Positions 2,403 to 32,360 of a stretch of 64,000 nt of DNA are shown here, one piece after another (position 1 is the first letter of the stretch; each line of letters starts with the position of its first letter). Source of the DNA: Dehalococcoidia bacterium. GTDB lineage: Bacteria > Chloroflexota > Dehalococcoidia > Lucifugimonadales > VXLM01. Made by a program: the position numbers and the translations under genes. The notes under the pieces are model-generated. The model was not told the origin of the DNA. It searched no databases and saw only the letters and a list, made by a program, of their open reading frames with translations. The DNA lies in NCBI GenBank assembly GCA_965232435.1, contig CBDDPU010000004.1, positions 240,974 through 304,973 on the forward strand. Direction: 5' to 3'.

Positions 2403-2495
2403 GATTCGACATTTCAAACTAAGGCACTACCAGGCTCCAAAACGGAGAGATGGCTGCTTTAGCCGGGGAGAGAATTTTATAAAGGGGCGGAAAAA

Positions 2496-2525
2496 CGTAG
2501 GGGCAGGTTTGAACCTGCCCCTACG
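2496..2525 (-). terminator. Rho-independent terminator at the end of leuA (end of the ilv-leu operon)
   Basis: Perfect 13-bp stem CGTAGGGGCAGGT / ACCTGCCCCTACG with a 4-nt loop. On the minus strand it is followed by TTTTTCC, and it lies 29 nt downstream of the leuA stop. Confidence 0.6.
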
Positions 2526-2553: not shown

Positions 2554-4116
2554 CTAGCTCGTCGGTACCGGCTCCATCGGGAGCTTCTGGTCTTCCATCT
2601 CGGCGAGGGCGCGGTTGAGGGCGTTCATGTATGCCCTGGCGCTGGCGACGATGATGTCGGTGTCGGAGCCGCGACCGACGAAGGAGTTGCCGTTCTGCCG
2701 GATGCGAATCGTCACATCCCCGATGGCGTCGACGCCCTCCGTAACCGCGTCCACTCGAAACTCGGTCAGGGTGTTGGGCACGCCGACGATACGGTTGATT
2801 GCCTGGTATACGGCGTCAACGGGGCCGGTTCCGGTAGCCGCGTCGGTAACGGCCTCCCCGGCGGGATTGATGAGCTGCACGGTGGCCGTCGGAATCTCGC
2901 CGTTGCCGCAGGTGACCTGCACCCGCTCCATCTTGTAGACCTGCACGACATCCTGGCGACGACGCTGCATGGACATGAGGGACATGAGGTCGGCGTCGGT
3001 CACCTCGCGCTTTCGATCGGCCAGTTCCTTGAAGTTCTGGAATGCAAGATCGAGCTGCGCCTGGTCAAGATTGAACCCCAACTCCTCCAGGCGGGAGCGC
3101 AGCCCTGCCCGTCCGCTCAACTTCCCCAGCACGAGACTGCTGGTCGGCCACCCTACCGTATGGGGATCCATGATCTCAAACGTCGTGCGAGATTTGATGA
3201 CGCCGTCCTGGTGGATGCCGGAGGCGTGCCGGAAGGCGTTCGCTCCGACGATCGCCTTGTTCGGCTGAACCGGGAACCCCGTGATGTCGCTGACAAGACG
3301 ACTCGTACGATAGATCTGCCGAGTATCAATGTTGGTGGTCACCCCCAGAGCATCGCCGCGGGTCTCGATGGTCATAATGACTTCCTCAAGAGAGGCATTG
3401 CCCGCGCGCTCGCCTAGACCGTTGATGCAGCCCTCAATCTGGCGAGCGCCTTCAACGACGGCCGCGATACTGTTCGGCGCGGCGTTTCCGAGGTCGTTAT
3501 GACAGTGAACACTGATTATCGCCTTGTCGATATTCGGCACGTTTTCCTTGATCAGGCGGATGCGCTCAGCGAACTCAGAGGGCAGCGCGTACCCGACGGT
3601 GTCGGGAATGTTCACGGTAGTCGCCCCCGCGTTGATGCACGCCTCCAACATCCTGTACAGGTACTCGATATCTGTACGTGTGGCATCCATCGGCGAGAAC
3701 TCCACGTTGTCGCAGAGGTTTCGCGCGCGTTCGACGGAAGAGACCGCCTGGTCGAGCACCTCTTCCGGGTTCTTGCGCAGCAAGTCCATCAAGTGGCTGT
3801 CTGAGCTGGATATAAAGGTGTGAATGCGCGGACGATCAGCTCCCTTAATAGCCTCCCACGCGGCGTCGATGTCGCCAGGCACACAGCGGGCCAGCGACGC
3901 GATGGTGGGAGTCCGAACCTCCCTCGCAATAGTCGACACCGCCTCGAAGTCGCCGGACGAACTCGCCGCAAATCCCGCCTCGATAATATCCACGCCGAGA
4001 CGCTCGAGCTGCCTGGCGATCTCCATCTTTTCGTCGAGCGTCAGACCGATTCCCGCCGACTGCTCACCGTCTCGCAGCGTCGTATCGAAGATCAGTACGT
4101 TTTCTTTGGTTGTCAT
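2554..4116 (-). CDS. leuA: 2-isopropylmalate synthase
   Basis: LIFDTTLRDGEQSAG, HCHNDLG and GLGERAGNASLEE motifs, a 520-aa length and a C-terminal LeuA dimerisation/regulatory region. Confidence 0.93.
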   Translation of the reverse strand: MTTKENVLIFDTTLRDGEQSAGIGLTLDEKMEIARQLERLGVDIIEAGFAASSSGDFEAVSTIAREVRTPTIASLARCVPGDIDAAWEAIKGADRPRIHTFISSSDSHLMDLLRKNPEEVLDQAVSSVERARNLCDNVEFSPMDATRTDIEYLYRMLEACINAGATTVNIPDTVGYALPSEFAERIRLIKENVPNIDKAIISVHCHNDLGNAAPNSIAAVVEGARQIEGCINGLGERAGNASLEEVIMTIETRGDALGVTTNIDTRQIYRTSRLVSDITGFPVQPNKAIVGANAFRHASGIHQDGVIKSRTTFEIMDPHTVGWPTSSLVLGKLSGRAGLRSRLEELGFNLDQAQLDLAFQNFKELADRKREVTDADLMSLMSMQRRRQDVVQVYKMERVQVTCGNGEIPTATVQLINPAGEAVTDAATGTGPVDAVYQAINRIVGVPNTLTEFRVDAVTEGVDAIGDVTIRIRQNGNSFVGRGSDTDIIVASARAYMNALNRALAEMEDQKLPMEPVPTS

Positions 4117-4292
4117 TGTTGTTTCTCCCTTGTGCGGCAGGCTTATACGTGTCCGAACCCCTCGGTTGCTTAGTCAGGGGCCGTCACCTAAGGGCGCCGC
4201 AGTCCGCCATGTCGAGCCATACCAGGACCCAACAATGCCGGCGAACTACGTGGGCTTCCTCCGTTGTGCGCATTCGCTTTACCTCTTACCAA

Positions 4293-5156
4293 TCAGAGCT
4301 TGGACAGTATGCCTTCTTCAAACTCAGACAACGTCACGGGATATCCTCCCGTAAGGCCCTCCGTGGCCCTCTCCAAGGTTGTGACGTGAACCTTGTCGCG
4401 AACCAACTGGAACCGCTGGCCATCCTCCACCTCTTCAAAACCGACGGTGAACCAGGCAATGTCACCGCTGGAGAGGTCATCGACCTCTTCCATATGCCCA
4501 AGCGATGCGAAGAAGTGACTATCGATGACAACTGCCATCTTCTTTCCCCACCGCCGGAGCGTAGGTACCTTTATTTGCAACTGGGGCATCAATCGCTTAG
4601 GACCACTGCTTCGATAGTCCGGTCTGCGTGTCTCACTAGGAAATGGTAGTCCATCTCCTGCAAACGCTTCGATGTTACGAAACTCATCAGCCATGCTCTT
4701 ACCTGAAAAATAGACGGACTGTATCTCCAGAGCACACCAATCAAGCGCCGCCGGCGAAGCCGCTTTGTTCGCCAGAACCATGTCAATCCGCCCTACGTGA
4801 GTATTTCCTCCTTCCGACTTGAGAAAACCTATTTCAGTTGCTATTTCGGGTGTCGGAGTGCCAAGAATAGTCTCACCGACCCACTGAAATACCGTCATAT
4901 TCTCTTCAAATCGCCGAGGGCAAAGTACCCGCAATCCGTCTTCGTCATCCAGTGTCGGAACGGCGAACCCGTCAACGTTTCTATACACACGAAAGGAACA
5001 GACTCCGCCTTTCTTGGTACACGAACCTCCTTTGATCCTAAATGGGCATGGCTGAACTTCCGAGGAACGAGAATATGCTCGTCTCTCGTCAGAAGTCAGC
5101 CCTAAATAAGAGTGCCCGTACCATTCTCCTATTCCGAAGCGGCGTGTTTTGCTCAC
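4293..5156 (-). CDS. Type II restriction endonuclease, NotI-like family
   Basis: The N-terminal Cys cluster CPF..SC..K..GVC....VLCPRR parallels the Cys4 iron site I recall from NotI (CPF..SC..GVC..LVCPNR). The ALEIQSVYFSG block resembles NotI LEIQTMDFHGS. The GTG start overlaps the methylase stop (GTGA). Confidence 0.6.
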   Translation of the reverse strand: MSKTRRFGIGEWYGHSYLGLTSDERRAYSRSSEVQPCPFRIKGGSCTKKGGVCSFRVYRNVDGFAVPTLDDEDGLRVLCPRRFEENMTVFQWVGETILGTPTPEIATEIGFLKSEGGNTHVGRIDMVLANKAASPAALDWCALEIQSVYFSGKSMADEFRNIEAFAGDGLPFPSETRRPDYRSSGPKRLMPQLQIKVPTLRRWGKKMAVVIDSHFFASLGHMEEVDDLSSGDIAWFTVGFEEVEDGQRFQLVRDKVHVTTLERATEGLTGGYPVTLSEFEEGILSKL

Positions 5157-6115
5157 ACCGACAACTCACCCGAAGTGATGAGCAACTCGTACAAAAGATC
5201 GTGATGTGTATTTTTCATAGGCACCTTCGCTAGATTAAATCCGTGTTCTCGGGCCATTCGGATGATTTCATCGCTCTCATCGTATGTCATCATGAAAGGG
5301 CTTTTGACCGCCGCCATGCGCTTAAACAGGGCTTCGTGGTCAATCTCATTGTGATTATAAAGACGTCTTCCGGCGCGCTTGCCCGCGGCCGTGTACGGAG
5401 GGTCGATAAAGAACGCGGCCGTTGGCCTATCCTTACTCAAGTCGACGAGACTCATGCCGTCACCTTGGAAGAAATCGAACCGGTTGGAATAGCTCCCAAT
5501 GGCGCGGATGCGAGCGGCCAGAGTTTCGGGATACCACCGGGACGCGAGACCGCTCCCATTTTCTCCTTGCTTCATTATCGAGGCTCCCTTGGCAAGAATG
5601 CCGCCGCGACTGATTCTGTTTCTGAGCAGCGTTTTGAACGCGGCGTCAACTACGTCCCCATCGGTCTTTTGAAGCGCTTCACGCACGTTTTCACTGCCCG
5701 CCTCAAACATCTCAACCCGGCGCGCCAGTTCCTCGGAGTCGTTCATGATGCAGCGCCAAAGAGAAGCGATATCCGAGTCGACTTCACACAACACCGCCCG
5801 ATCCGTAAGTCCCTCCATTACTGCCGTGAGGGAGGCGATGCCACCCCCCGCAAACGGCTCTACAAATACCTCCGGGCGAGAGTCGAGACCGGTCAGCCAT
5901 CTCCGTATCTGTGGAACTAGCCAGGTCTTGCCGCCGGGATATCGCAAAGGGCTCCTCTGCGGCACCGATGCGACGTTAACAACGCTTTCCGATAGGATAG
6001 GGACGGAATCCGGGGAGAACTCAGACTCAATGCCATGATAATCCCCGCTTATCGAAACGACGATTTCATCACTGCCGGTCGCATGATCCATTTGGCGTGT
6101 TACGCTCATCACCAA
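5153..6115 (-). CDS. DNA adenine methyltransferase, D12/Dam class
   Basis: RYPGGK, EPFAGGG (SAM-binding FxGxG) and FFIDPPY (motif IV DPPY) occur in the order typical of alpha-group N6-adenine MTases. It is translationally coupled to the downstream nuclease. Confidence 0.85.
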   Translation of the reverse strand: MVMSVTRQMDHATGSDEIVVSISGDYHGIESEFSPDSVPILSESVVNVASVPQRSPLRYPGGKTWLVPQIRRWLTGLDSRPEVFVEPFAGGGIASLTAVMEGLTDRAVLCEVDSDIASLWRCIMNDSEELARRVEMFEAGSENVREALQKTDGDVVDAAFKTLLRNRISRGGILAKGASIMKQGENGSGLASRWYPETLAARIRAIGSYSNRFDFFQGDGMSLVDLSKDRPTAAFFIDPPYTAAGKRAGRRLYNHNEIDHEALFKRMAAVKSPFMMTYDESDEIIRMAREHGFNLAKVPMKNTHHDLLYELLITSGELSV

Positions 6116-6292
6116 TCAATTCCTCAATACAGTCGCTTGCGCGATTCAGCTAACCCACGGCCTCTACCTTGGCATCGGACAACTCGACATCCGGCCAACC
6201 TTGAACTCCCTTGAGTCCTTCGGCTCGAATTGGATGAAGAGAGTATCGACATCGGCAATGCAAGAACTACTCACAGTTGCCCGCCCCATCAT

Positions 6293-7294
6293 TTAGTCCG
6301 CGTCCTTGAGGAAGCTCATCATGCCGCGAAGCTCCGCTCCGACCTTTTCGATGGAGTGCTCGGCGGCCTCCTTGCGAAGTTGCGTGAAGCGGTGGCGTCC
6401 CTCATCGTTCTCGGCTATCCACTCGCGGGCGAAGGAGCCGTCCTGAACGGCCTCAAGCACCTTCTTCATGTTCTCCTTGACGTGTTCATCCACGACGACC
6501 GGGCCGCGCGTAAGGTCTCCGTACTCCGCCGTGTCGCTGACGGAGTAACGCATGTATTCCATGCCGCCCTGATAGAGCAGGTCGACGATGAGCTTGAGTT
6601 CGTGCATACACTCAAAATAGGCCGACTCCGGCTGATATCCCGCCTCAACCAAAGTCTCATAGCCCGCCTTTATCAGGGCCGTCACTCCGCCGCACAGGAT
6701 GGTCTGCTCGCCGAAGAGGTCGGTCTCGGTCTCTTCCTTGAAGGTGGTTGTGAGCACGCCGGCCCGAGTGCAGCCCACTCCCTTGGCATAGGCAAGCCCG
6801 ATTTCACGGGCGGTTCCCGAAGCGTCCTGGTGAATGGCCAGCAGACCCGGCACGCCGGAACCTCGCGTGAACACCTCGCGCATCCGATGCCCCGGCGCTT
6901 TGGGCGCAACCATCGACACGTCGATGTTTTCCGCGGGCAGGATGGTCTCATAGTGGATGTTGAATCCGTGGGCGAACATGAGCGTCTTGCCCGCGCCCAT
7001 GTGCGGCGCTATCTCCTGGTTGTATACATCCGCTTGGAGGTGGTCGGGAATGAGCACCATGACGATGTCGGACTCTTTCGCGGTCTCCTCGACGGCGCCG
7101 ACTCGCAGGCCGTCGGCCTCCGCCTTCTCACGGCTTCTGCTGCCCTCGTACAGCCCAACCATCACGTTCAGCCCGTTGTCCTTGCAATTGAGCGCGTGAG
7201 CGTGACCCTGGCTCCCGTATCCGATAATGCCGATTGTCTTGTCCTCCAAGAGGGACAGATCGGCGTCGTTGTCGTAGAACATCTCTGCTGGCAT
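6293..7294 (-). CDS. ilvC: Ketol-acid reductoisomerase
   Basis: [16 protein letters not shown] Rossmann motif, class I length (333 aa) and conserved C-terminal knotted-domain sequence. Confidence 0.95.
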
Positions 7295-7393: not shown

Positions 7394-7963
7394 TCATACC
7401 GAAGCAGCCTCGCCCCAATGGCGGCGTTTGATTTCCCCGCCCGATCGCTGTTCGTGCAAATGACCTAACCATCGCTCCATGACAATGGACCCGGTGCGCA
7501 TGACTTCCATGATGCCGAACCGCTTGACGAGGCCCAGAAGCGATTCGATTTTGTCCTGGTCGCCGGTGACCTCAACGATGAGGTGGTCCGGAGCGACGCC
7601 GGCGATCTTGGCGTTGAATACTTCGACGATCTGGATGATCTCCGGGCGAGTCTCGCTTGTGGCCCTGATCTTGATGAGGGCGAGTTCGCGAGAAACGACG
7701 TTCTTGCTCGACACCTTGGTAACTCGAATCACGTCGATGAGCTTGTGCAGGTGCTTATTGACTTGCTCGATGGTGCGCTTATCGCCCTCGACCACGAAGG
7801 TCATCCGGGACAGATCAGGTTCTTCACTGTGGCCGACGGCCAAGCTCACAATGTTAAACCCTCGCCGCCGGAACATGCTGGACACCCGGTTGAGAACTCC
7901 CGGTTTGTCCCGCACGAGGGCCGTAATGGTATGGTGTTCGATAGAGACGCCGTTCGTAGTCAT
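7394..7963 (-). CDS. ilvN: Acetolactate synthase small (regulatory) subunit
   Basis: ACT-domain start HTITALVRDKPGVLNRVSSMFRRRGFNIVSLAVG. It has a 4-bp overlap with ilvB. Confidence 0.9.
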   Translation of the reverse strand: MTTNGVSIEHHTITALVRDKPGVLNRVSSMFRRRGFNIVSLAVGHSEEPDLSRMTFVVEGDKRTIEQVNKHLHKLIDVIRVTKVSSKNVVSRELALIKIRATSETRPEIIQIVEVFNAKIAGVAPDHLIVEVTGDQDKIESLLGLVKRFGIMEVMRTGSIVMERWLGHLHEQRSGGEIKRRHWGEAASV

Positions 7964-9699
7964 CGGGCCGCCTCCCAGGGAGCGAACTCCGGCTCCTCGA
8001 CAAGATCCTCGATAGTGCCGCCCGCCTTGATCATGGGGTACACTCGCTCTTCCTCTTCGACGACGAAATCGATGATCACCGGGCCGTCATGGTCCATCGC
8101 CTCTTCAATGGCCCCGCGCACCTGAACCCTGTCGGTCACCCGCATAGCCTTGATTCCGAAGGCTTCGGCGAGCTTCACGAAGTCGGGATTCGCCGTGTAA
8201 GCCGTGGCAACGTAGCTCTTGTCGTAAAAGAACTCCTGCCACTGGTGCACCATCCCCAGCACATTGTTGTTGATGATGGCGAACTTAACCGGCAGCCGGT
8301 TCTCGACGATCGTGGCAAGCTCGCACATCGTCATTTGGAAACCGCCGTCGCCGGCCACGGACCAAACCGCCCTGTCCGGCGCCCCGACCTGTACGCCCAT
8401 AGCCCCGGGCACTTCATAACCCATCGCGCCTGAACCGCCCGACGTAATGAACGTGCATGGGTACTTGTACGTGAAGTGCTGCGCGGCCCACATCTGATGC
8501 TGACCAACACCGGTCACCACAATGGCGTCGCCCTTCGTAACCTCGGACAGCTCCTTCATGATGAACTGTGGGAGCAGCTGCTCGGCGTCGCGGACCACAT
8601 GCGAAGGATGCTCCTCTTTCAACTCCTCAATCCGACGGAGCCAATCGGGATGCGTGTTCTCCCGTACCTGAGGATTCAGCTTGTTGAGTACCCGTTTCAG
8701 GTCTCCCACGATAGGGACTTCAACCTCAATGTTCTTCCCGATCTCCGAGGGATCGATATCGACGTGAATCTTCTTGGATTTGCGAGCGAAGGCGCTCGTC
8801 TTGCCCGTGATCCGGTCATCGAACCGCATCCCCAAAGCAATCAGAAGGTCGGCCTCCTCAATGGCGATGCTCGCATATGCCATGCCGTGCATTCCCGGCA
8901 TCCCGACACACAGAATGTGGTCGTCCGGGAACGAACTTATGCCAAGCAAGGTCGTGATGACCGGGATCTGCGCCTTCTCGGCCAGCTCCCGGAGTTCGGC
9001 ATACGCGCCCGAAAAAATGATGCCATGACCGGCAAGGATAACCGGACGCTCGGCCTCGTTTATCAGCGCAACCGCCTTCTTGATCTGGCTGGTGTGCCCC
9101 CTCAATGTCGGCTTGTAGCCGGGCAAATCGATCTGCAAAGAGTCGTAATACTCGCCGAAGCTATCGAACGGAAGCTCTATCTCTTCAGTCTGCACATCTT
9201 TGGGCACGTCGATGACAACCGGGCCGGGTCTGCCGGTATTCGCGATGTGAAAAGCCTCTTTAACCACCTGCGGGATCTCTTCGGGCTCCATAACCAAGGT
9301 GTTGTGCTTCGTGATGGGAAGCGTTATCCCCGTGGTGTCGGTCTCCTGAAAGGCATCAGTCCCGATGGAGGCGCGGGCCACCTGCCCCACGACGGCAACC
9401 ACAGGAACGGAATCCATCTGGGCCGTCGCAATGCCGGTCACCAAGTTAGTCGCCCCCGGACCGGACGTCGCCCAGCACACGCCGACCCTGCCCGTCACTC
9501 GAGCATAACCGTCGGCGGCGTGGGCCGCACCCTGCTCGTGCCGAGTGAGAATGTGGCGAAGCTGAGGATACTGCGGAAGCGTCTGGTAAAGCGGCAGAAT
9601 CGCTCCACCCGGAAGACCGAAGAGTTCTACGACGCCCTCACGTACTAGGCTCTCGCACAGCAGCTGCGACCCATTCATTCGGATTCCCATGATCTTCAC
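7960..9699 (-). CDS. ilvB: Acetolactate synthase large subunit
   Basis: ThDP enzyme with GLPGGAILP, GPGATN and GDGGFQM motifs. The true start may be the ATG at 9690 (AGGAGG lies 10 nt upstream) rather than the GTG at 9699. Confidence 0.95.
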   Translation of the reverse strand: MKIMGIRMNGSQLLCESLVREGVVELFGLPGGAILPLYQTLPQYPQLRHILTRHEQGAAHAADGYARVTGRVGVCWATSGPGATNLVTGIATAQMDSVPVVAVVGQVARASIGTDAFQETDTTGITLPITKHNTLVMEPEEIPQVVKEAFHIANTGRPGPVVIDVPKDVQTEEIELPFDSFGEYYDSLQIDLPGYKPTLRGHTSQIKKAVALINEAERPVILAGHGIIFSGAYAELRELAEKAQIPVITTLLGISSFPDDHILCVGMPGMHGMAYASIAIEEADLLIALGMRFDDRITGKTSAFARKSKKIHVDIDPSEIGKNIEVEVPIVGDLKRVLNKLNPQVRENTHPDWLRRIEELKEEHPSHVVRDAEQLLPQFIMKELSEVTKGDAIVVTGVGQHQMWAAQHFTYKYPCTFITSGGSGAMGYEVPGAMGVQVGAPDRAVWSVAGDGGFQMTMCELATIVENRLPVKFAIINNNVLGMVHQWQEFFYDKSYVATAYTANPDFVKLAEAFGIKAMRVTDRVQVRGAIEEAMDHDGPVIIDFVVEEEERVYPMIKAGGTIEDLVEEPEFAPWEAAR

Positions 9700-9751: not shown

Positions 9752-10075
9752 GAAAAAAGTCCCGCCCCTCCAAGAAGGGACGGGACAAGCTAAACCAAAA
9801 TATCCCGCGGTACCACCCTCGTTCCCTCTGTCTCAACCATGAGACGGAGGACACTCGTAGCTCCGTGGAGCGTGGCCTGTAACGGCGCCTAACCGCCCTG
9901 CCCTACGCCGCCCGCCAAGAAATGGCGCTGAAACCGGTCTCAGGCAAGATGCTCAGGGGCGAGTTCGCGATCGCCGGCACGCCGGGGATTCCACCGTGTA
10001 CCCCGTTCTCTATCGTACGCTTACCGCTACTACTCCCCTTCGACGCATACTCCGACTATTCGGTTGTTATACAAA
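9752..10075 (-). promoter_or_regulatory. T-box leader (tRNA-sensing riboswitch) upstream of ilvB, probable Leu (CUC) specifier
   Basis: Features read on the minus strand:
- The conserved T-box sequence GAGGGTGGTACCGCGGG (plus-strand coordinates 9804-9821).
- A terminator hairpin GTCCCGTCCCT..AGGGGCGGGAC followed by TTTTTT (9752-9786).
- Upstream stem I elements in the expected order: AGTA box (GGGGAGTAGTAG), AGAGA bulge, distal-loop GGTGGAA, then GAA-CUC-G in specifier-loop context (CUC at 9961-9963). Confidence 0.75.
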
Positions 10076-24960: not shown

Positions 24961-25872
24961 ATGCCCCCCAGCGTAACCATCCAAGCGCCCGCAACCAGCG
25001 CGAACATGGGGCCGGGCTTCGACTGCCTCGGCATCGCCCTCGACATCTGGAACACCGTACACGTCGAAACCGACTCGACCGGTTTTGAAATACACGGCCT
25101 CGGTCGTGACGAACTCCCGGCCGGAAACGAAAACCTGATCGCGCGATCCTTCCGGCTTGCCTGCGAAGAGGCAGGGGAAATCCCGCCAAAAGTAAAATTC
25201 ACCTGCGAAAACAACATACCTCTAGGCCGTGGACTCGGAAGCAGCTCAGCCGCTGCCGTCGCCGGCATAGTCGCCGCAAACGAACTCATCGACAGACCCC
25301 TGATCGATTCGCAAATTCTCGCCCTGGCCGCCCGAATCGAGGGACACCCCGACAACTCCGCCGCCGCACTCTATGGAGGCTGCCAAGTTGTCGTGCGCGA
25401 CCAGGACCGGCTAATCACTTCGACCATCCCTATACCGCAGAGACTCCGCATCGTCCTCTTCGTACCGGAAAAGCCGATGCCGACCGCCGAAGCCCGATCA
25501 GTCCTCCCCTCGAAAATATCCATGCAAGACGCCGTCTTCAACATCGGCCGCGTCGGCCTCCTCGTCAACTCACTCGCAAACGACAGCCTCGACCATCTCG
25601 CAATCGCCACACAAGACCGACTCCACCAGCCCGCCCGTCAAACCATCTTCCACCCCATGAAAGTCATCATGCGCGCCGCCCTCGACGCCGGCGCCCACGC
25701 CGCATTCCTCTCAGGCGCCGGCTCCACCATCCTCGCCCTCGCATCAGACCACGAAATGACCATCGGCTACGAAATGGCCGAAGCCGCCTCAAAATCCGGC
25801 ATCGACGGCGACGTCATCATCACCAACCCAACACCCAAGGGCGCGCGCGGCGGGGTGAATTTCAATGGATAG
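24961..25872 (+). CDS. thrB: Homoserine kinase
   Basis: APATSANMGPGFD and GHP-kinase motif PLGRGLGSSSAAAVAG. The start is chosen at MPPSVTIQ (24961) because the longer 24919 ORF adds a non-homologous extension. Confidence 0.9.
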   Translation: MPPSVTIQAPATSANMGPGFDCLGIALDIWNTVHVETDSTGFEIHGLGRDELPAGNENLIARSFRLACEEAGEIPPKVKFTCENNIPLGRGLGSSSAAAVAGIVAANELIDRPLIDSQILALAARIEGHPDNSAAALYGGCQVVVRDQDRLITSTIPIPQRLRIVLFVPEKPMPTAEARSVLPSKISMQDAVFNIGRVGLLVNSLANDSLDHLAIATQDRLHQPARQTIFHPMKVIMRAALDAGAHAAFLSGAGSTILALASDHEMTIGYEMAEAASKSGIDGDVIITNPTPKGARGGVNFNG

Positions 25873-25920
25873 GAGAAATCTAGTGCCTAGGAATTTCTGC
25901 TTGCTACTCCCGAGTCGTAT

Positions 25921-26075
25921 TAGGTAGTGTTGACATTTCCCGTCATTCCCGCGAAAGCGGGAATCCAGATCGGGCGCTGCAAGCCATGTCCAAAGGGGAT
26001 CAGATTCCCGCTTTCGCGGGAATGACGTCTTTAGCAGGGTAACAGGGTGGTTTTTTAGAATGTCAACACTACCTA
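25921..26075. mobile_element. MITE-like element (155 bp) with a perfect 17-bp terminal inverted repeat
   Basis: TAGGTAGTGTTGACATT at 25921-25937 and its exact reverse complement at 26059-26075. The outermost TA on each side could be a TA target duplication. The interior holds two inverted copies of the family-1 hairpin (25942-25968 and 26003-26026). No ORF. Confidence 0.6.
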
Positions 26076-26136
26076 GTTGGTCTCAACTCGCGCCTGCACG
26101 GCACATAATTGCTTATCCGACTAATGGAGTGACCTG

Positions 26137-26472
26137 ATGCCTTCAGATTCTGATTTAGCCCTAAGGACGCTACACCTTACAAAGCGTTACTGCAAGCTAA
26201 CGGCTGTCCATGATGTTAGTTTAGAGGTTTACAGAAGCGAGATTTTCGGCCTTAGGGCCTTAGAGGGTGTCTAAAAACAACTCCGTTCGCCCTGAGCCTG
26301 CCGAAGGGTGAAAGCCTGGTTCATGGTTCGACAAGATCACCATAAACGGTTCCCGCTGACTTTTTAGACACCCTCTTATAGGCCCGAACGGACCAGGAAA
26401 GACTACGATTATCGGAATGGTCGTTGGCCTTATAAGACCAACTTCTTCAGGAGACGAGACATCCAGTTCTAG
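26137..26472 (+). pseudogene. Remnant of an ABC-transporter ATP-binding gene, interrupted in the Walker A codons and truncated after about 70 codons
   Basis: It reads MPSDSDLALRTLHLTKRYCKLTAVHDVSLEVYRSEIFGL, then the insertion, then (I)GPNGPGKTTIIGMVVGLIRPTS and a stop at 26470. The Q-loop, signature and Walker B regions are absent. Confidence 0.65.
26255..26378. mobile_element. MITE-like insertion (about 124 bp) inside the ABC remnant
   Basis: Inverted termini GAGGGTGTCTAAAAA (26263-26277) and TTTTTAGACACCCTC (26361-26375) enclose a family-2 repeat core. Removing about 124 nt restores IFGLIGPNGPGKTT. The exact ends are ambiguous because the target GGCCTTATAGGCC is itself palindromic. Confidence 0.6.
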
Positions 26473-27215
26473 ATTTCGATATGGACGCCGTACGAGCGCC
26501 ATATCTTCTCTATGCGCTTCTTGATCTGGGCAAGCAATCTTCGTTCCGCCGAATATATGCAGAATTGGTTGCGTTCACCCTCACTAGGGTCCTCGATAAT
26601 ATAGACGCTTTCAGTTCCCCAGTCCTGGACAACTTTGGCCTGCTCTTTGGTACGAGATCTAGTACGTGTTCGGGCCAAGCTCCGGGCCTCATCCAAGATC
26701 ATATCGAAGTGTGGCGGCTTCGGTACAAGTATGCGAAAGTCAACGAACGGCCAGATTGCCGTATGTCCATTCCAAAGCTTCATTACACTTTGTAAATGGG
26801 CCCTAGCGTACAGTGGTATCACAAACTCATCACCAGTGCGCTTTCCGCCGATGGCGATCAGTGCCAAACCATAGGTATCTAGGAAGTGTTCAACCTCTTG
26901 CACGTCCTCATTGAAGATAGCGCTACCAGGTGTGAAATACACAAATCCTTTTCCAGCCACGCAACTCAGTAACGCCCACATCATTTCCTCGACTGCTGGA
27001 CATACATCCCCTCCAGCCTGAGAAGTAATCATTTCTCCAAAGAACTTGCGCTCTGTAATGAAAGAGTCTCGCACGAAACTCCCTCGTATGATTATCGCGT
27101 CCCTCTTTCGAAGGTCGCCGTCTCGAACAGAATCGGTTTCTCTGATTAGTGAAATGCGATCAGGTACATAACGCCCTTCGTCAGGAATGGTGTTCATTTC
27201 AGCAATATCAGTCAT
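26469..27215 (-). CDS. Hypothetical cytosolic protein (248 aa) with no family recognised
   Basis: It is the longest ORF in a visibly AT-richer segment, where long spurious ORFs are unlikely. It has no TM segments. The central block GFVYFTPGS...ALIAIGGKRTGDEF is only vaguely Rossmann/SLOG-like. I could not assign a family. Confidence 0.5.
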   Translation of the reverse strand: MTDIAEMNTIPDEGRYVPDRISLIRETDSVRDGDLRKRDAIIIRGSFVRDSFITERKFFGEMITSQAGGDVCPAVEEMMWALLSCVAGKGFVYFTPGSAIFNEDVQEVEHFLDTYGLALIAIGGKRTGDEFVIPLYARAHLQSVMKLWNGHTAIWPFVDFRILVPKPPHFDMILDEARSLARTRTRSRTKEQAKVVQDWGTESVYIIEDPSEGERNQFCIYSAERRLLAQIKKRIEKIWRSYGVHIEI

Positions 27216-27290
27216 GATGTCCCAATATCAAGGCAAGTGTATCACCACGGAAGTAGACGTACTCGGTGGTCTTTCGCCTTAGCGTTTTTG

Positions 27291-27869
27291 TTAGCTTTGG
27301 TGGTCACCTGAATATGAGTCCCATGATTGTAATGATTTCGGGTGCAGGCCGATCGACTTCGACCACCCTTTTTGTTTCTGTTTCATACCTACTTGAAAGT
27401 AAGTCTGGCCCTTTTTAAGCCCACTCACAGACACCTGGATACCTTTAGCAGTGTTATATGTGCTCTTCGCCGTATTTATGGTTTTCTTTGCAGTAGCACT
27501 AACAACACGTGGAGTAGACTTCACTGCCTTGTATGCGGCTTTCGCAACCCGTGAAACGTGGGAACACATGGCAACACAGGTTCTAACCACCGCACAAGGG
27601 ATGCAGGCCTTCCTGATCTCAATTGACGAGACTCCAAAATGGGAGGACGAGTTGTAGCTCGTAGGGGATGTTGATTCATAGCCATAAGCATGAGCAACAT
27701 CGAAATTCTCTGAAACGTGAGACACTAAGGATGCCACTGCTAGGGTGAGTATCGGCATAACCAAGGAAAACATGATGACATTACGTATACGGAACAAACT
27801 AATGTACGCATGAGTTGATTGGGTTACTGGTTCGTTATGATTTGCAATCATAACTTCTCCCATTGGCAT
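27291..27869 (-). CDS. Hypothetical membrane-anchored or secreted protein (up to 192 aa), with a Cys cluster and a Lys-rich tail
   Basis: Hydrophobic segment MFSLVMPILTLAVASLVSHV with a possible AHA cleavage site, a CIPCAVVRTCVAMC cluster, and a basic repetitive tail (AKKTINTAKSTYNTAKG). The start codon is uncertain. It is co-oriented 75 bp upstream of the 248-aa ORF. Confidence 0.45.
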   Translation of the reverse strand: MPMGEVMIANHNEPVTQSTHAYISLFRIRNVIMFSLVMPILTLAVASLVSHVSENFDVAHAYGYESTSPTSYNSSSHFGVSSIEIRKACIPCAVVRTCVAMCSHVSRVAKAAYKAVKSTPRVVSATAKKTINTAKSTYNTAKGIQVSVSGLKKGQTYFQVGMKQKQKGWSKSIGLHPKSLQSWDSYSGDHQS

Positions 27870-28167
27870 TCAGGTTGACTGATATCCGGGCGAATCGCTG
27901 TCCGCGTGTCCAACGGGACTTCAGCAACTGAGTTCATCAAGAAACCGTTCTTCACGTACGTCAAAGAACAGTTGCATACATTCCGTCACTTGGCAACCCC
28001 TGGCTGACTTTATCCGGAATTCCTCAATACAGCATGGTAGAGAATATGCGCTGCTTGTGGACGCCGGATTGGTCGATCCGAGCGGTAAGACTCTCTACGG
28101 AAGAAGGCAGGAGGTTGCGGGAGCTATCAACTATATTGTTGAGAGGGCGAGAGAAACCGCGCTTTAG

Positions 28168-31021: not shown

Positions 31022-31222
31022 CTATTCGACTTCGCTCTCCTCGCTTGGGATAATCTCCCGCCCGTTATAATACCCGCACGCGCCGCAAACGTGATGCGGA
31101 CGCACTTTACTCGGGCATTCGGGGCAATCCACCATCGTCGGAACGCTGAGGAACAAATGCGCCCCCCGCTTCCCACGACGGGAACGTGAATGTTTCTTCT
31201 TCGGTACCGGTCCGCCTGGCAT
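31022..31222 (-). CDS. rpmF: 50S ribosomal protein L32
   Basis: PKKKHSRSRRGKRGAH and a zinc-ribbon CPEC...CGAC. 66 aa. Confidence 0.9.
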   Translation of the reverse strand: MPGGPVPKKKHSRSRRGKRGAHLFLSVPTMVDCPECPSKVRPHHVCGACGYYNGREIIPSEESEVE

Positions 31223-31304
31223 AGCTGTTCAGTCCTTCTCGGCCCCACCAGCCGACGTACCCTCAAAAGGTTCGCCCGCAGAGCCGATATCGGTCAAGGT
31301 GTTC

Positions 31305-31844
31305 TTAGTTCTTCCTTAAGTTCGTTGTTCCAATCGAAGGCATCGCATCCAACAAAGGCCCCCATCGGCTGTCCCGCTGTAACTGGTCACACCCGCAAGA
31401 CTCATTGTTTCGGTTGACGCCGCACCCCGCGCACAGACCGGCGCAGTCTTTCCGACACAATGGAAGCATGGGCAGACCGAGCGATATGTACTGGCGGACC
31501 GTCTCCGCCAAATCGAGAACGTGCTCCTCGTCAATCACGAGGTTCTCCTCCGGATCCAGGTCATCGAGCAGCCTTTCCCCGCTCACCAGGTCGAACTGCG
31601 GAATCGCCTCCTCATCGATGGTTATCTCCACCGGCTGCACATAGGATCCAAGACACCGTCCACACTCCGATTCAACCTGCGTGTCCAGAAACGCGGTAGC
31701 CCAAACCCCTTTATCGGTTCTGATAAACCGCGCGCTGCCTCGAACCTCCACCAATTCGCCGCGAAACGTCAGGCGATCTTCAACCGCGTGCTGCCGCGTC
31801 GAACCGCCGGCCTCTCGGACAAGCTGTGAAACGTTAAAGCGCAT
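31305..31844 (-). CDS. yceD: YceD/DUF177 family protein
   Basis: Conserved position upstream of rpmF. C-terminal Cys motifs CRKDCAGLCAGCG..C.C. Confidence 0.8.
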   Translation of the reverse strand: MRFNVSQLVREAGGSTRQHAVEDRLTFRGELVEVRGSARFIRTDKGVWATAFLDTQVESECGRCLGSYVQPVEITIDEEAIPQFDLVSGERLLDDLDPEENLVIDEEHVLDLAETVRQYISLGLPMLPLCRKDCAGLCAGCGVNRNNESCGCDQLQRDSRWGPLLDAMPSIGTTNLRKN

Positions 31845-31892
31845 AATCCCCTTACGAAATCAAGCAGGCCCGTATAGCCCGGAAGCTGTGCT

Positions 31893-31922
31893 ATTGTAGG
31901 GATAACCGCTTCACGGCGTCAA
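31893..31922 (-). promoter_or_regulatory. Candidate sigma70-type promoter for yceD-rpmF-fabD
   Basis: The minus strand reads TTGACG, an 18-nt spacer, then TACAAT. The -10 box ends about 48 nt upstream of the yceD ATG. Confidence 0.4.
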
Positions 31923-31956
31923 GATTTTCAAGGCTGCCCCACGAACTGCGCTGACC

Positions 31957-32295
31957 CTACGCGCAGCCTGTAGCAATTGCGACCGCCGGGCAGACTTCGA
32001 CCATCTTCGATTCGCTTATTGACCCTATGTAGCGACGCAACTGTTGCTTCTGAACGGACTGGATATGGTCGCAGTTGATCGGCGAGTCGTTCTTGAGGCC
32101 CTCGTCCACACCGACAATGACCTCGCTTGGCAGACCGCGAATCGTGGAGTTTATCGGCGCCACAATCGCGGCGCTGAGCAGCGGGAGCACTTCCGAGCGC
32201 GTCAACACCACAACCGGCCGACGCTTGTCGGGCGGGTTGAACCGGTAGAGCCAGACCTCTCCCCGGCGCGGCCCAGTGTCTAATCCTCCAACCAT
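31957..32295 (-). CDS. mazF: MazF/PemK-family toxin (endoribonuclease)
   Basis: RRGEVWLYRFNPPDKRRPVVVLT...VAPINST...SPINCDHIQSV is the typical PemK/MazF pattern. 112 aa and apparently intact. Confidence 0.8.
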   Translation of the reverse strand: MVGGLDTGPRRGEVWLYRFNPPDKRRPVVVLTRSEVLPLLSAAIVAPINSTIRGLPSEVIVGVDEGLKNDSPINCDHIQSVQKQQLRRYIGSISESKMVEVCPAVAIATGCA

Positions 32296-32360
32296 ACGGC
32301 TTGGTCAGCCCAGCCCTTAAGTTCGTCGTCTATGGCAGGGTCGCTCCGATATCCTGATCG
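32280..32360 (-). pseudogene. C-terminal remnant of an RHH antitoxin (toxin-binding tail), overlapping the mazF start
   Basis: The minus-strand frame reads RSGYRSDPAIDDELKGWADQAVWLED-stop, preceded by an in-frame TAG. The acidic, Trp-containing tail and 16-nt overlap with the toxin start are typical of antitoxin 3' ends. Confidence 0.45.

Follow-up and report, generated by a model that had tools for sequence, protein, structure and literature searches.

What brings a pair of restriction-modification (R-M) genes into the middle of a biosynthetic operon, and what becomes of them once they are there, is the question raised by a stretch of 64,000 nucleotides (nt) from a Dehalococcoidia bacterium (GenBank assembly GCA_965232435.1, contig CBDDPU010000004.1, positions 240,974 to 304,973 of the forward strand), the whole of which we call the window. 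On its minus strand lie six co-oriented genes in the order ilvB, ilvN, ilvC, M, R and leuA, where M encodes a putative adenine DNA methyltransferase (MTase) and R a putative restriction endonuclease. A first-pass annotation of the window had proposed this arrangement, and both the list of open reading frames (ORFs) and the Pfam domains of the products bear it out. We consider it highly likely that M and R are a functional, horizontally acquired Type II R-M unit, lodged in a recurrent slot of an ilvBNC-leuA operon that is headed by a leucine T-box. The parts of the locus, from the 5′ end of the operon to its 3′ end, are as follows.

9773-10052, minus strand: T-box leader with specifier CUC (Leu), found with Rfam model RF00230; its terminator/antiterminator hairpin reaches 9759
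7960-9699, minus strand: ilvB, from Pfam domains and synteny in 80 loci
7394-7963, minus strand: ilvN, from the same evidence
6293-7294, minus strand: ilvC, from the same evidence
4274-6292, minus strand: whole non-native insert (islet remnants plus M-R), from the ilvC stop to the point where homology with relatives lacking the cassette resumes
6150-6274, minus strand: DUF2283 pseudogene, with a ~90-nt internal deletion and a frameshift relative to the intact gene of 70-75 amino acids (aa) in the related locus L001
6124-6140, minus strand: tail of a GNAT acetyltransferase gene (K R L Y and stop, that is, four codons plus the stop), from alignment to L001
5153-6115, minus strand: M, D12-class (alpha-group) N6-adenine DNA MTase, ORF of 320 aa
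4293-5156, minus strand: R, NotI-family restriction endonuclease, probably of PD-(D/E)XK type, 287 aa, GTG start
4185-4267, minus strand: structured RNA element, a two-helix hairpin of 19 pairs, from RNAalifold, pair counts and a covariance model
2554-4116, minus strand: leuA (2-isopropylmalate synthase), final gene of the operon, from Pfam HMGL-like, HCS_D2 and LeuA_dimer
2491-2524, minus strand: intrinsic terminator 3′ of leuA, with a stem GTAGGGGCAGGTT..AACCTGCCCCTAC followed by GTTTTT, read by eye from the sequence

The two genes and their coupling

The nuclease gene had been assigned a NotI-like fold, and two lines of evidence lead to that family. The 287-aa product of R matches positions 11-238 of the 238-position Pfam model PF12183 (NotI), with a score of 226.5 bits (cut-off 22) and E 3.8e-67. 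In addition, when an AlphaFold2 model of R built on 26 homologs (pLDDT 88.5, pTM 0.85) was compared with the Protein Data Bank (PDB) by Foldseek, the only significant match was NotI itself, in its DNA-bound structure 3C25 (chains 3c25_A and 3c25_B; E 3.4e-8, probability 1.00, TM 0.64 when normalised to the query, ~15% identity). A phmmer search of the PDB chain sequences with R returned zero matches, the NotI chain included, and two profiles of the R family (A3 and A8) used in hmmsearch against the PDB sequences did not reach that chain, so that the link to NotI comes solely through the Pfam model and the fold search. Among homologs 36-88% identical to R, four cysteines (C37, C46, C53 and C79) are invariant; likewise invariant down to 36% identity are D125 (in GRIDMVL) and E144-x-Q146 (in ALEIQAVY), which fit a D...ExQ/K pattern, and the long RRPDYRSSGPKRLMPQL block. 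We infer that the four cysteines and the D/E/Q residues may be equivalent to the metal and catalytic sites of NotI. By its modelled structure, R is a distant but genuine NotI-fold nuclease.

The ORF of M has 320 aa and its probable start is the ATG at 6109, which gives a protein of 318 aa; a database protein of that length (P0121, 100% identical) begins there. M matches the D12-class model PF02086 at 49.6 bits (cut-off 22), its translation carries EPFAGGG (motif I, FxGxG) and FFIDPPY (motif IV, DPPY), and its residues 55-287 align to the adenine MTase of PDB 7m6b. The first-pass description of M as a “Dam-class” methylase therefore stands as far as the D12 N6-adenine class is concerned, for which both PF02086 and the DPPY motif speak, but not for the Dam (GATC) subfamily: M falls far under the subfamily cut-offs of TIGR00571 and PRK10904 (42.6 bits vs 114.85, and 23.3 vs 441), so the term is apt only in the broad D12 sense and GATC specificity should not be assumed.

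M and R are physically coupled, as had been noticed on the first reading: the stop codon of M and the GTG start of R share the 4 nt GTGA at 5153-5156. An RTGA start/stop overlap is kept in 5/5 of the M-R copies found in Chloroflexi, all five of which are intact, and an arrangement of this kind would make the translation of R dependent on that of M. A comparison of the window with L001, a close relative in which the pair occupies the same position, gives synonymous divergence (dS) of 1.14 for M and 0.63 for R, with ratios of nonsynonymous to synonymous divergence (dN/dS) of 0.10 and 0.15, respectively; the corresponding ranges for the flanking genes are 0.72-0.89 and 0.025-0.077. As the dS values of M and R bracket those of the flanks, the cassette was already present in the common ancestor of the window and L001. 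Judged by these ratios, both M and R are under purifying selection, and the pair is apparently best read as a functional two-gene Type II R-M unit. From what is known of the two families, M would methylate adenine to mark the host DNA and R would cut the same site when it is unmethylated. A seeming orphan R in another locus, L002, was considered and rejected; M is intact there and had merely been called short.

M-R as an insertion between ilvC and leuA

The pair had been described as AT-richer than its neighbours and as a horizontally acquired module within the operon, and composition and synteny both agree with that description. The cassette has a GC content of 0.534, compared with a window mean of 0.592 (standard deviation 0.029), a value within the lowest 5.5% for stretches of the same length. 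The GC content at third codon positions (GC3) is 0.62 in M and 0.52 in R, as against 0.74-0.80 in ilvN, ilvC and leuA, and the two genes lie 0.15-0.35 under their neighbours in both the window and L001. For synteny, the six proteins of the window were mapped onto one genome per species having ilvC, a set of 80 loci. The empty site that the insertion hypothesis calls for is common: in ~20 species of Dehalococcoidia and other Chloroflexota, ilvC is followed directly by leuA, 30-300 nt away. Far from being a universal possession of relatives with native composition, M-R stands between ilvC and leuA in 0/80 of these species-level loci.

Close relatives, defined as genomes whose ilvC is at least 90% identical to that of the window, show the same junction in several states, with the following contents of the gap between ilvC and leuA.

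L181, 7991-8795: GNAT and DUF952, no M-R
L182, 7991-9439: DUF2283 and DUF952, no M-R
L183: M-R
L001: DUF2283, GNAT and M-R

The boundaries between these states are sharp. Homology between the window and L181 stops at 6293, the ilvC stop, and restarts at 4273. In the comparison of L181 with L001, homology continues up to the M start codon and restarts 6 nt past the R stop; these breakpoints show that one slot is taken either by the 1.8-kb M-R unit or by a DUF952 segment of 339 nt. The stretch in front of M has a history of its own. Homology between the window and L001 restarts at window position 6140 (L001 7014), which lies within the 3′ end of the L001 GNAT gene, and DUF2283 and GNAT are both intact in L001; the DUF2283 remnant and the GNAT tail thus identify the window as a deletion derivative of a larger islet. 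In this genome, the older cargo (DUF2283 and GNAT) has decayed, whereas M and R have stayed intact under purifying selection. Around M-R in the window, no flanking repeat or target-site duplication rises above chance. In L001, the DUF2283 gene lies between two 50-nt direct copies, 96% identical, of the 3′-terminal part of ilvC with its stop codon (6237-6286 and 6529-6578). Taken together, the empty sites, the polymorphism among close relatives, the atypical composition and the presence of the same pair in other contexts and on plasmids (below) support horizontal acquisition of M-R as an insertion.

A recurrent slot in front of a conserved hairpin

The slot that holds M-R in the window is filled in several other genomes. 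The following spacers between ilvC and leuA are occupied; here, all cargo names other than DUF952, GNAT and DUF2283 are readings of translations and not Pfam matches.

L004, 10994-12478: a 232-aa ORF resembling a HAD-type hydrolase and a 133-aa ORF
L005, 10994-11865: small low-GC ORFs
L010, 10985-12228: a PIN/VapC-like gene
L019, 10976-13113: 2.1 kb of low-GC DNA
L023, 10985-12522: a Uma2-like gene and a carbonic anhydrase gene
L059, 5820-6629: a further filled spacer
L062, 3246-3973: a further filled spacer

A four-helix-bundle protein also belongs to this cargo. These comparisons show the spacer between ilvC and leuA to be a slot in which insertions recur across Chloroflexota, the cargo being unrelated from locus to locus and often lower in GC than its flanks. 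The region as a whole takes insertions repeatedly: in close relatives, insertion sequence (IS) elements encoding DDE transposases interrupt or adjoin this operon, one separating ilvN from ilvC in L001 (3446-4648) and another lying just 3′ of leuA in L182 (11384-12715).

The leuA-proximal edge of the slot is marked by a hairpin that emerged in the course of this analysis. In the window, it lies between the R stop and leuA, and in Dehalococcoidia it is found ~70-190 nt upstream of leuA. Copies of it are as follows.

L001, 8888-8970
L007, 11022-11098
L008, 2430-2512
L012, 11033-11115
L018, 11075-11157
L019, 12921-13003
L024, 11092-11173
L181, 8802-8884

Across nine hairpin sequences, 97% of cells are paired and 9/19 pairs have changed on both sides; 0/500 shuffles reach the observed values, and controls in which the sequence was slid pair at 29-41%. 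With 15 distinct sequences, 97.5% of cells are paired and 11/19 pairs covary, again with 0/500 shuffles as high. A covariance model of the hairpin matched 16 loci, including four distant ones from outside its training set, and those four matches always lie between ilvC and leuA; within the whole 64-kb window, the model matches once. The hairpin is preceded on its 5′ side by an invariant GGAG and followed on its 3′ side by GYCCU, and its G.U pairs are confined to the sense strand, as expected of an element that acts as RNA. It has no match in Rfam. Kept in empty and filled sites alike, the hairpin is by this distribution native and not part of the insert, and we regard it as a putative new RNA element of Dehalococcoidia that acts in cis, perhaps in the processing or stability of the transcript or as a leader of leuA. 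Wherever it is present, cargo lies upstream of it (L004, L005, L010, L019, L181 and L182). On this evidence, the M-R unit occupies a short recurrent slot bounded by the ilvC stop on one side and the conserved leuA hairpin on the other.

Recognition site and exchange of the partner methyltransferase

What the unit recognises can be constrained, in part, by the company that R keeps elsewhere. Of 100 R-bearing loci, 46 have a homologous D12 MTase linked to R, with three gene orders represented, and 37 have a C-5 cytosine MTase (PF00145) instead. The nucleases of L119 and L106 are 91% identical, yet that of L119 is accompanied by an MTase of the PF00145 type, which produces 5-methylcytosine (m5C), and that of L106 by a PF02086 D12 enzyme, which produces N6-methyladenine (m6A). 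Nucleases this similar almost certainly share one site, and if a single site is protected by either an m6A or an m5C partner, the site in the L119/L106 clade must include an adenine as well as a cytosine at which methylation prevents cleavage. By analogy, the site of the window enzyme probably contains both an A.T and a C.G pair. Both of these loci with swapped methylases (L119 2867-5296 and L106 10001-12124) adjoin ParA-like plasmid genes.

A second constraint is negative. Because the cognate methylase is adenine-specific, the site of R should differ from GCGGCCGC, the site of NotI; this argument of the first-pass annotation is logically sound and is strengthened by the m6A/m5C partner exchange.

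Screens for depleted motifs in the window, the Chloroflexi carriers and the plasmid-type carriers do not allow a recognition site to be named. In the 64-kb window, GCATGC occurs once where ~14 copies are expected from a Markov model and ~20 from base composition. Other carriers of the cassette have 12 copies against 14.4 expected and are thus not depleted, so the shortage probably reflects another restriction system in the window genome. ACGCGT, AAGCTT and TTCGAA are present in the window at 0.2-0.26 of expectation. AAGCTT is scarce in the Chloroflexi carriers (4 copies vs 22.6 expected) and also in non-carriers (observed-to-expected ratio 0.60), and the shortage is not significant once multiple testing is taken into account. 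Among the plasmid-type carriers, repeated plasmid backbones dominate the pooled counts. PsaI (AAGCTT) was considered as a characterised relative and rejected, being a HindIII-family enzyme with a beta-class methylase. A search of the literature on the “NotI family”, on PF12183 and on the pairs of plasmid pEST4011 turned up no characterised member or published recognition site.

Relatives of the unit in other settings

About 2,500 homologs of R can be detected, and many of these, from metagenome-assembled genomes of Chloroflexi and Dehalococcoidia, are 70-88% identical to it. The unit in the order M then R recurs in surroundings that have nothing to do with leucine synthesis: among luciferase-like genes in L002, between helicase and Rieske genes in L003, and behind MFS and protease-like genes in L184 and L186. 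In L187 (623-8870), M-R follows a HicB-like antitoxin gene with a 4-nt overlap. The segment that contains them has a large serine recombinase gene at either end and could represent the unit in mobile form. Upstream of M in L184 and L185 there is an apparent remnant of the same HicB-like gene. L186 carries a second restriction enzyme gene (RE_XamI family, 8327-8870) 3.5 kb from M-R, which suggests a small defence neighbourhood.

More distant homologs of R, ~52-53% identical, are carried by conjugative IncP-type plasmids and by Aeromonas plasmids of 4-8 kb, where NCBI annotates the pairs as “NotI family restriction endonuclease” and “DNA adenine methylase”. The Aeromonas plasmid pair has diverged from that of the window to a similar extent in its two genes (50% identity for M, 52% for R). 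Among viruses, the GenBank phage collection has no match for R, and IMG/VR yields 15 contigs only, mostly with distant relatives of R.

Elsewhere in the window, two other patches are low in GC and are probably further accessory insertions. The first (25400-27900) contains two minus-strand ORFs, 26469-27215 and 27291-27869, neither of which has a Pfam match, with GC down to 0.47; the second (31200-32300) adjoins a MazF/PemK toxin gene (31957-32295, minus strand).

Transcription of the unit and alternative explanations

If M-R is a guest within the operon, it is worth asking whose transcription it uses. The T-box leader that had been placed at about 9752-10075 is recovered at 9773-10052 by RF00230 over the whole model (positions 1-219) with 86.3 bits and E 5.5e-18, 7 bits short of the gathering score of 93; the specifier in the alignment reads GAA-CUC-G, that is, Leu, and the leader has its own terminator-like site at 9786-9759. 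Orthologous leaders before ilvB score 109.4 bits in L007 and 99.2 bits in L183, both above the gathering score, and 91.5 bits in L181. Preceding ilvB in loci with the cassette (L183) and without it (L181 and L007), the T-box leader is, by this comparison, ancestral. At the other end, the strong terminator that had been proposed at 2496-2525 is visible at 2491-2524, with a GC-rich stem of 12-13 bp; it is the strongest intrinsic terminator of the region.

Between these two signals, little was found that would set the cassette apart. A simple scan detected no terminator-like site on the sense strand from the T-box to the leuA terminator, the cassette and both gaps included, and likewise none between ilvC and M or between R and leuA in L183, but this absence has to be read cautiously because the scan also failed to call the leuA terminator at 2491-2524. 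The gaps at 6116-6292 and 4117-4292 had been described as having no obvious terminator; to that extent the scan concurs, but they are not plain spacers, the one being filled by the DUF2283 pseudogene and GNAT tail and the other containing structured RNA. A promoter scan, which covered the sigma-70-type consensus only, gave 4 promoter-like matches where 3.2 are expected by chance. Across six contexts, no conserved sequence was found upstream of M, and a portable promoter is accordingly not supported. With no promoter or terminator seen to isolate the cassette, read-through from ilvC is plausible, and on these sequence features we consider it fairly probable that at least some of the M-R transcripts arise in this way. 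Transcription of leuA would then have to pass through the cassette. That M-R depends on the T-box for all of its transcription we rate as much less likely than read-through.

The alternative that fares best is that M-R is an autonomous transcription unit, in which a promoter in the DUF2283/GNAT remnant or within M drives M-R, and possibly leuA, without the T-box, and the position in the operon has no regulatory consequence. R-M systems generally require steady expression of the methylase. The 177 nt before M are a non-coding remnant and could hold a promoter, there is a weak promoter-like site within M at 5290-5262, and gaps of 118 to ~700 nt precede M in other contexts. Against this, however, promoter-like matches are at chance level, nothing is conserved upstream of M between contexts, the exchanged segment begins at the M start codon, and M can be tightly packed behind other genes (11 nt behind GNAT in L001, overlapping the HicB-like gene by 4 nt in L187). 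Furthermore, with no terminator 3′ of ilvC, read-through would happen anyway. We therefore consider an autonomous unit possible but the less likely account.

Several points also weigh against our own reading of a functional unit reached by read-through. Enzymatic activity, methylation and transcript behaviour of M-R are all read from sequence. R has no sequence match to the NotI chain, whether as a single sequence or as a profile, and the equivalence of its four cysteines and catalytic residues is inferred only. The argument for a site with both A and C comes from the plasmid-type clade, whose nucleases are ~52% identical to that of the window, and may not transfer. A non-consensus internal promoter, for instance in the 177-nt DUF2283/GNAT remnant, would escape the scan, and an R-M unit expressed from the T-box alone would risk an imbalance of methylase and nuclease, which argues for some constitutive transcription. 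Finally, the gene upstream of M is co-oriented with it in 6/6 contexts, but as a test of hitch-hiking this was rejected, as it is not significant when compared with ordinary gene co-orientation.

One can take the read-through idea much further. In Dehalococcoidia, the slot between the ilvC stop and the leuA hairpin might be a recombinase-free capture site for promoterless genes, among which R-M, the PIN/VapC-like gene of L010, DUF952, GNAT and DUF2283 have been seen. The R-M unit, like other cargo, would then be a passenger of a T-box operon that senses tRNA-Leu, and leuA would depend on transcription of the cassette. If true, levels of restriction and modification would follow leucine starvation. 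We regard this fuller version as doubtful.

Rather improbable is the view that what is left of the pair is decaying or has been domesticated, either with an inactive R and with M kept as an orphan methylase in an epigenetic role, or with both genes non-functional. Its neighbours in the slot have indeed decayed (the DUF2283 pseudogene and the GNAT tail), database entries for homologs of R often have a called length of no more than ~200-230 aa, and the exact 287-aa sequence of R is absent from the protein collection. Yet the ORFs of M and R are full length, their dN/dS values of 0.10 and 0.15 are maintained over dS of ~0.6-1.1, the four cysteines and the D/E/Q residues of R are kept, and so is the 4-nt overlap in five copies, the one seemingly truncated M (L002) being intact.

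Two further accounts have very little in their favour. An origin of M-R within the ilv-leu operon of this lineage, followed by loss in others, would fit the dS of M and R, which is similar to that of the flanking genes, and the position common to three genomes (window, L001 and L183), but is very hard to reconcile with its absence from all 80 species-level loci, the ~20 direct ilvC-leuA junctions, the DUF952 occupants of L181 and L182 with their clean breakpoints, the low GC3 in both genomes and the occurrence of the pair in unrelated contexts and on plasmids. Equally improbable is a compact system of the PD-lambda-5 type in place of a classical Type II R-M unit: the best of the PADLOC profiles matched by M is PD-Lambda-5_B (E 3.6e-44), but M also matches generic Type II MTase profiles such as MTase_II, and R, with its NotI fold, matches no PADLOC profile, PD-Lambda-5_A included; as the match comes from M only, the pair is not a PD-lambda-5 system.

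A functional, acquired Type II unit with at least partial read-through from ilvC is thus the account that we prefer. Parts of it have precedent: the pairing of a NotI-family nuclease with an adenine methylase has been annotated on plasmids, and R-M insertion and substitution without mobility genes has been catalogued. What the window adds is a clean, datable case of an R-M unit inside an essential biosynthetic operon under T-box regulation of a riboswitch-like kind, with no promoter or terminator of its own seen, and this makes it testable whether defence genes hitch-hike on metabolic regulation. The exchange of m6A and m5C partners constrains the recognition site and is a natural experiment in methylase replacement. 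The analysis also exposed a covarying hairpin in the leuA leader that belongs to no Rfam family and upstream of which all cargo insertions lie. It is the setting in an operon, the exchange of methylases and the hairpin that give the locus modest added interest.

Comparison with known systems

It is informative to set the locus beside systems that resemble it. The ilv-leu operon of Bacillus subtilis is a T-box-controlled ilvBHC-leuABCD operon. As in that operon, a T-box with a leucine specifier precedes ilvB, and a single transcription unit contains ilvC with leuA behind it. In the window, by contrast, leuA is the last gene, foreign cargo separates it from ilvC, and a lineage-specific hairpin precedes it.

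R and NotI (PDB 3C25/3BVQ) belong to one Pfam family, PF12183, and NotI is the sole significant structural match of R. NotI reportedly has an Fe-Cys4 site, to which the four invariant N-terminal cysteines of R may correspond. The differences are considerable: identity is ~15% in the structural alignment, HMMER finds no match to the NotI chain, R has 287 aa whereas the solved NotI chain has ~354, and the partner of R is an N6-adenine methylase, hence a site that should not be GCGGCCGC.

Closer to the pair as a whole are those of plasmids, namely pEST4011 (NC_005793), pIJB1 (NC_019378), Variovorax plasmids and a 4-kb Aeromonas plasmid (NZ_CP121823), with identities of 52-53% for R and ~50% for M. 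There, however, R precedes M, with a spacer, as annotated, of ~130 nt (Aeromonas) or ~50 nt (pEST4011), whereas in the window M precedes R with a 4-nt overlap; and the plasmid pairs travel on conjugative or small plasmids, whereas that of the window is chromosomal and within an operon.

PD-lambda-5 is a prophage-borne, compacted system that combines R-M with abortive infection (Vassallo et al. 2022, PMC9519451). M resembles its component PD-Lambda-5_B, but the nuclease partner is unrelated and R has no PD-Lambda-5_A match.

The closest parallel for the manner of insertion is the catalogue of R-M insertion and substitution modes, including long target duplications, of Furuta, Abe and Kobayashi (2010, PMC2853133). 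Like the cases described there, M-R is a low-GC R-M unit with no linked mobility gene that is present, absent or substituted between strains. Target duplications of ~45-50 bp over the 3′ end of a gene are among those cases, and the repeat in L001 has such a signature. In contrast to them, the long duplication of L001 flanks the DUF2283 cargo and not M-R, which has no flanking repeat, and M-R changes places with the DUF952 segment at fixed breakpoints.

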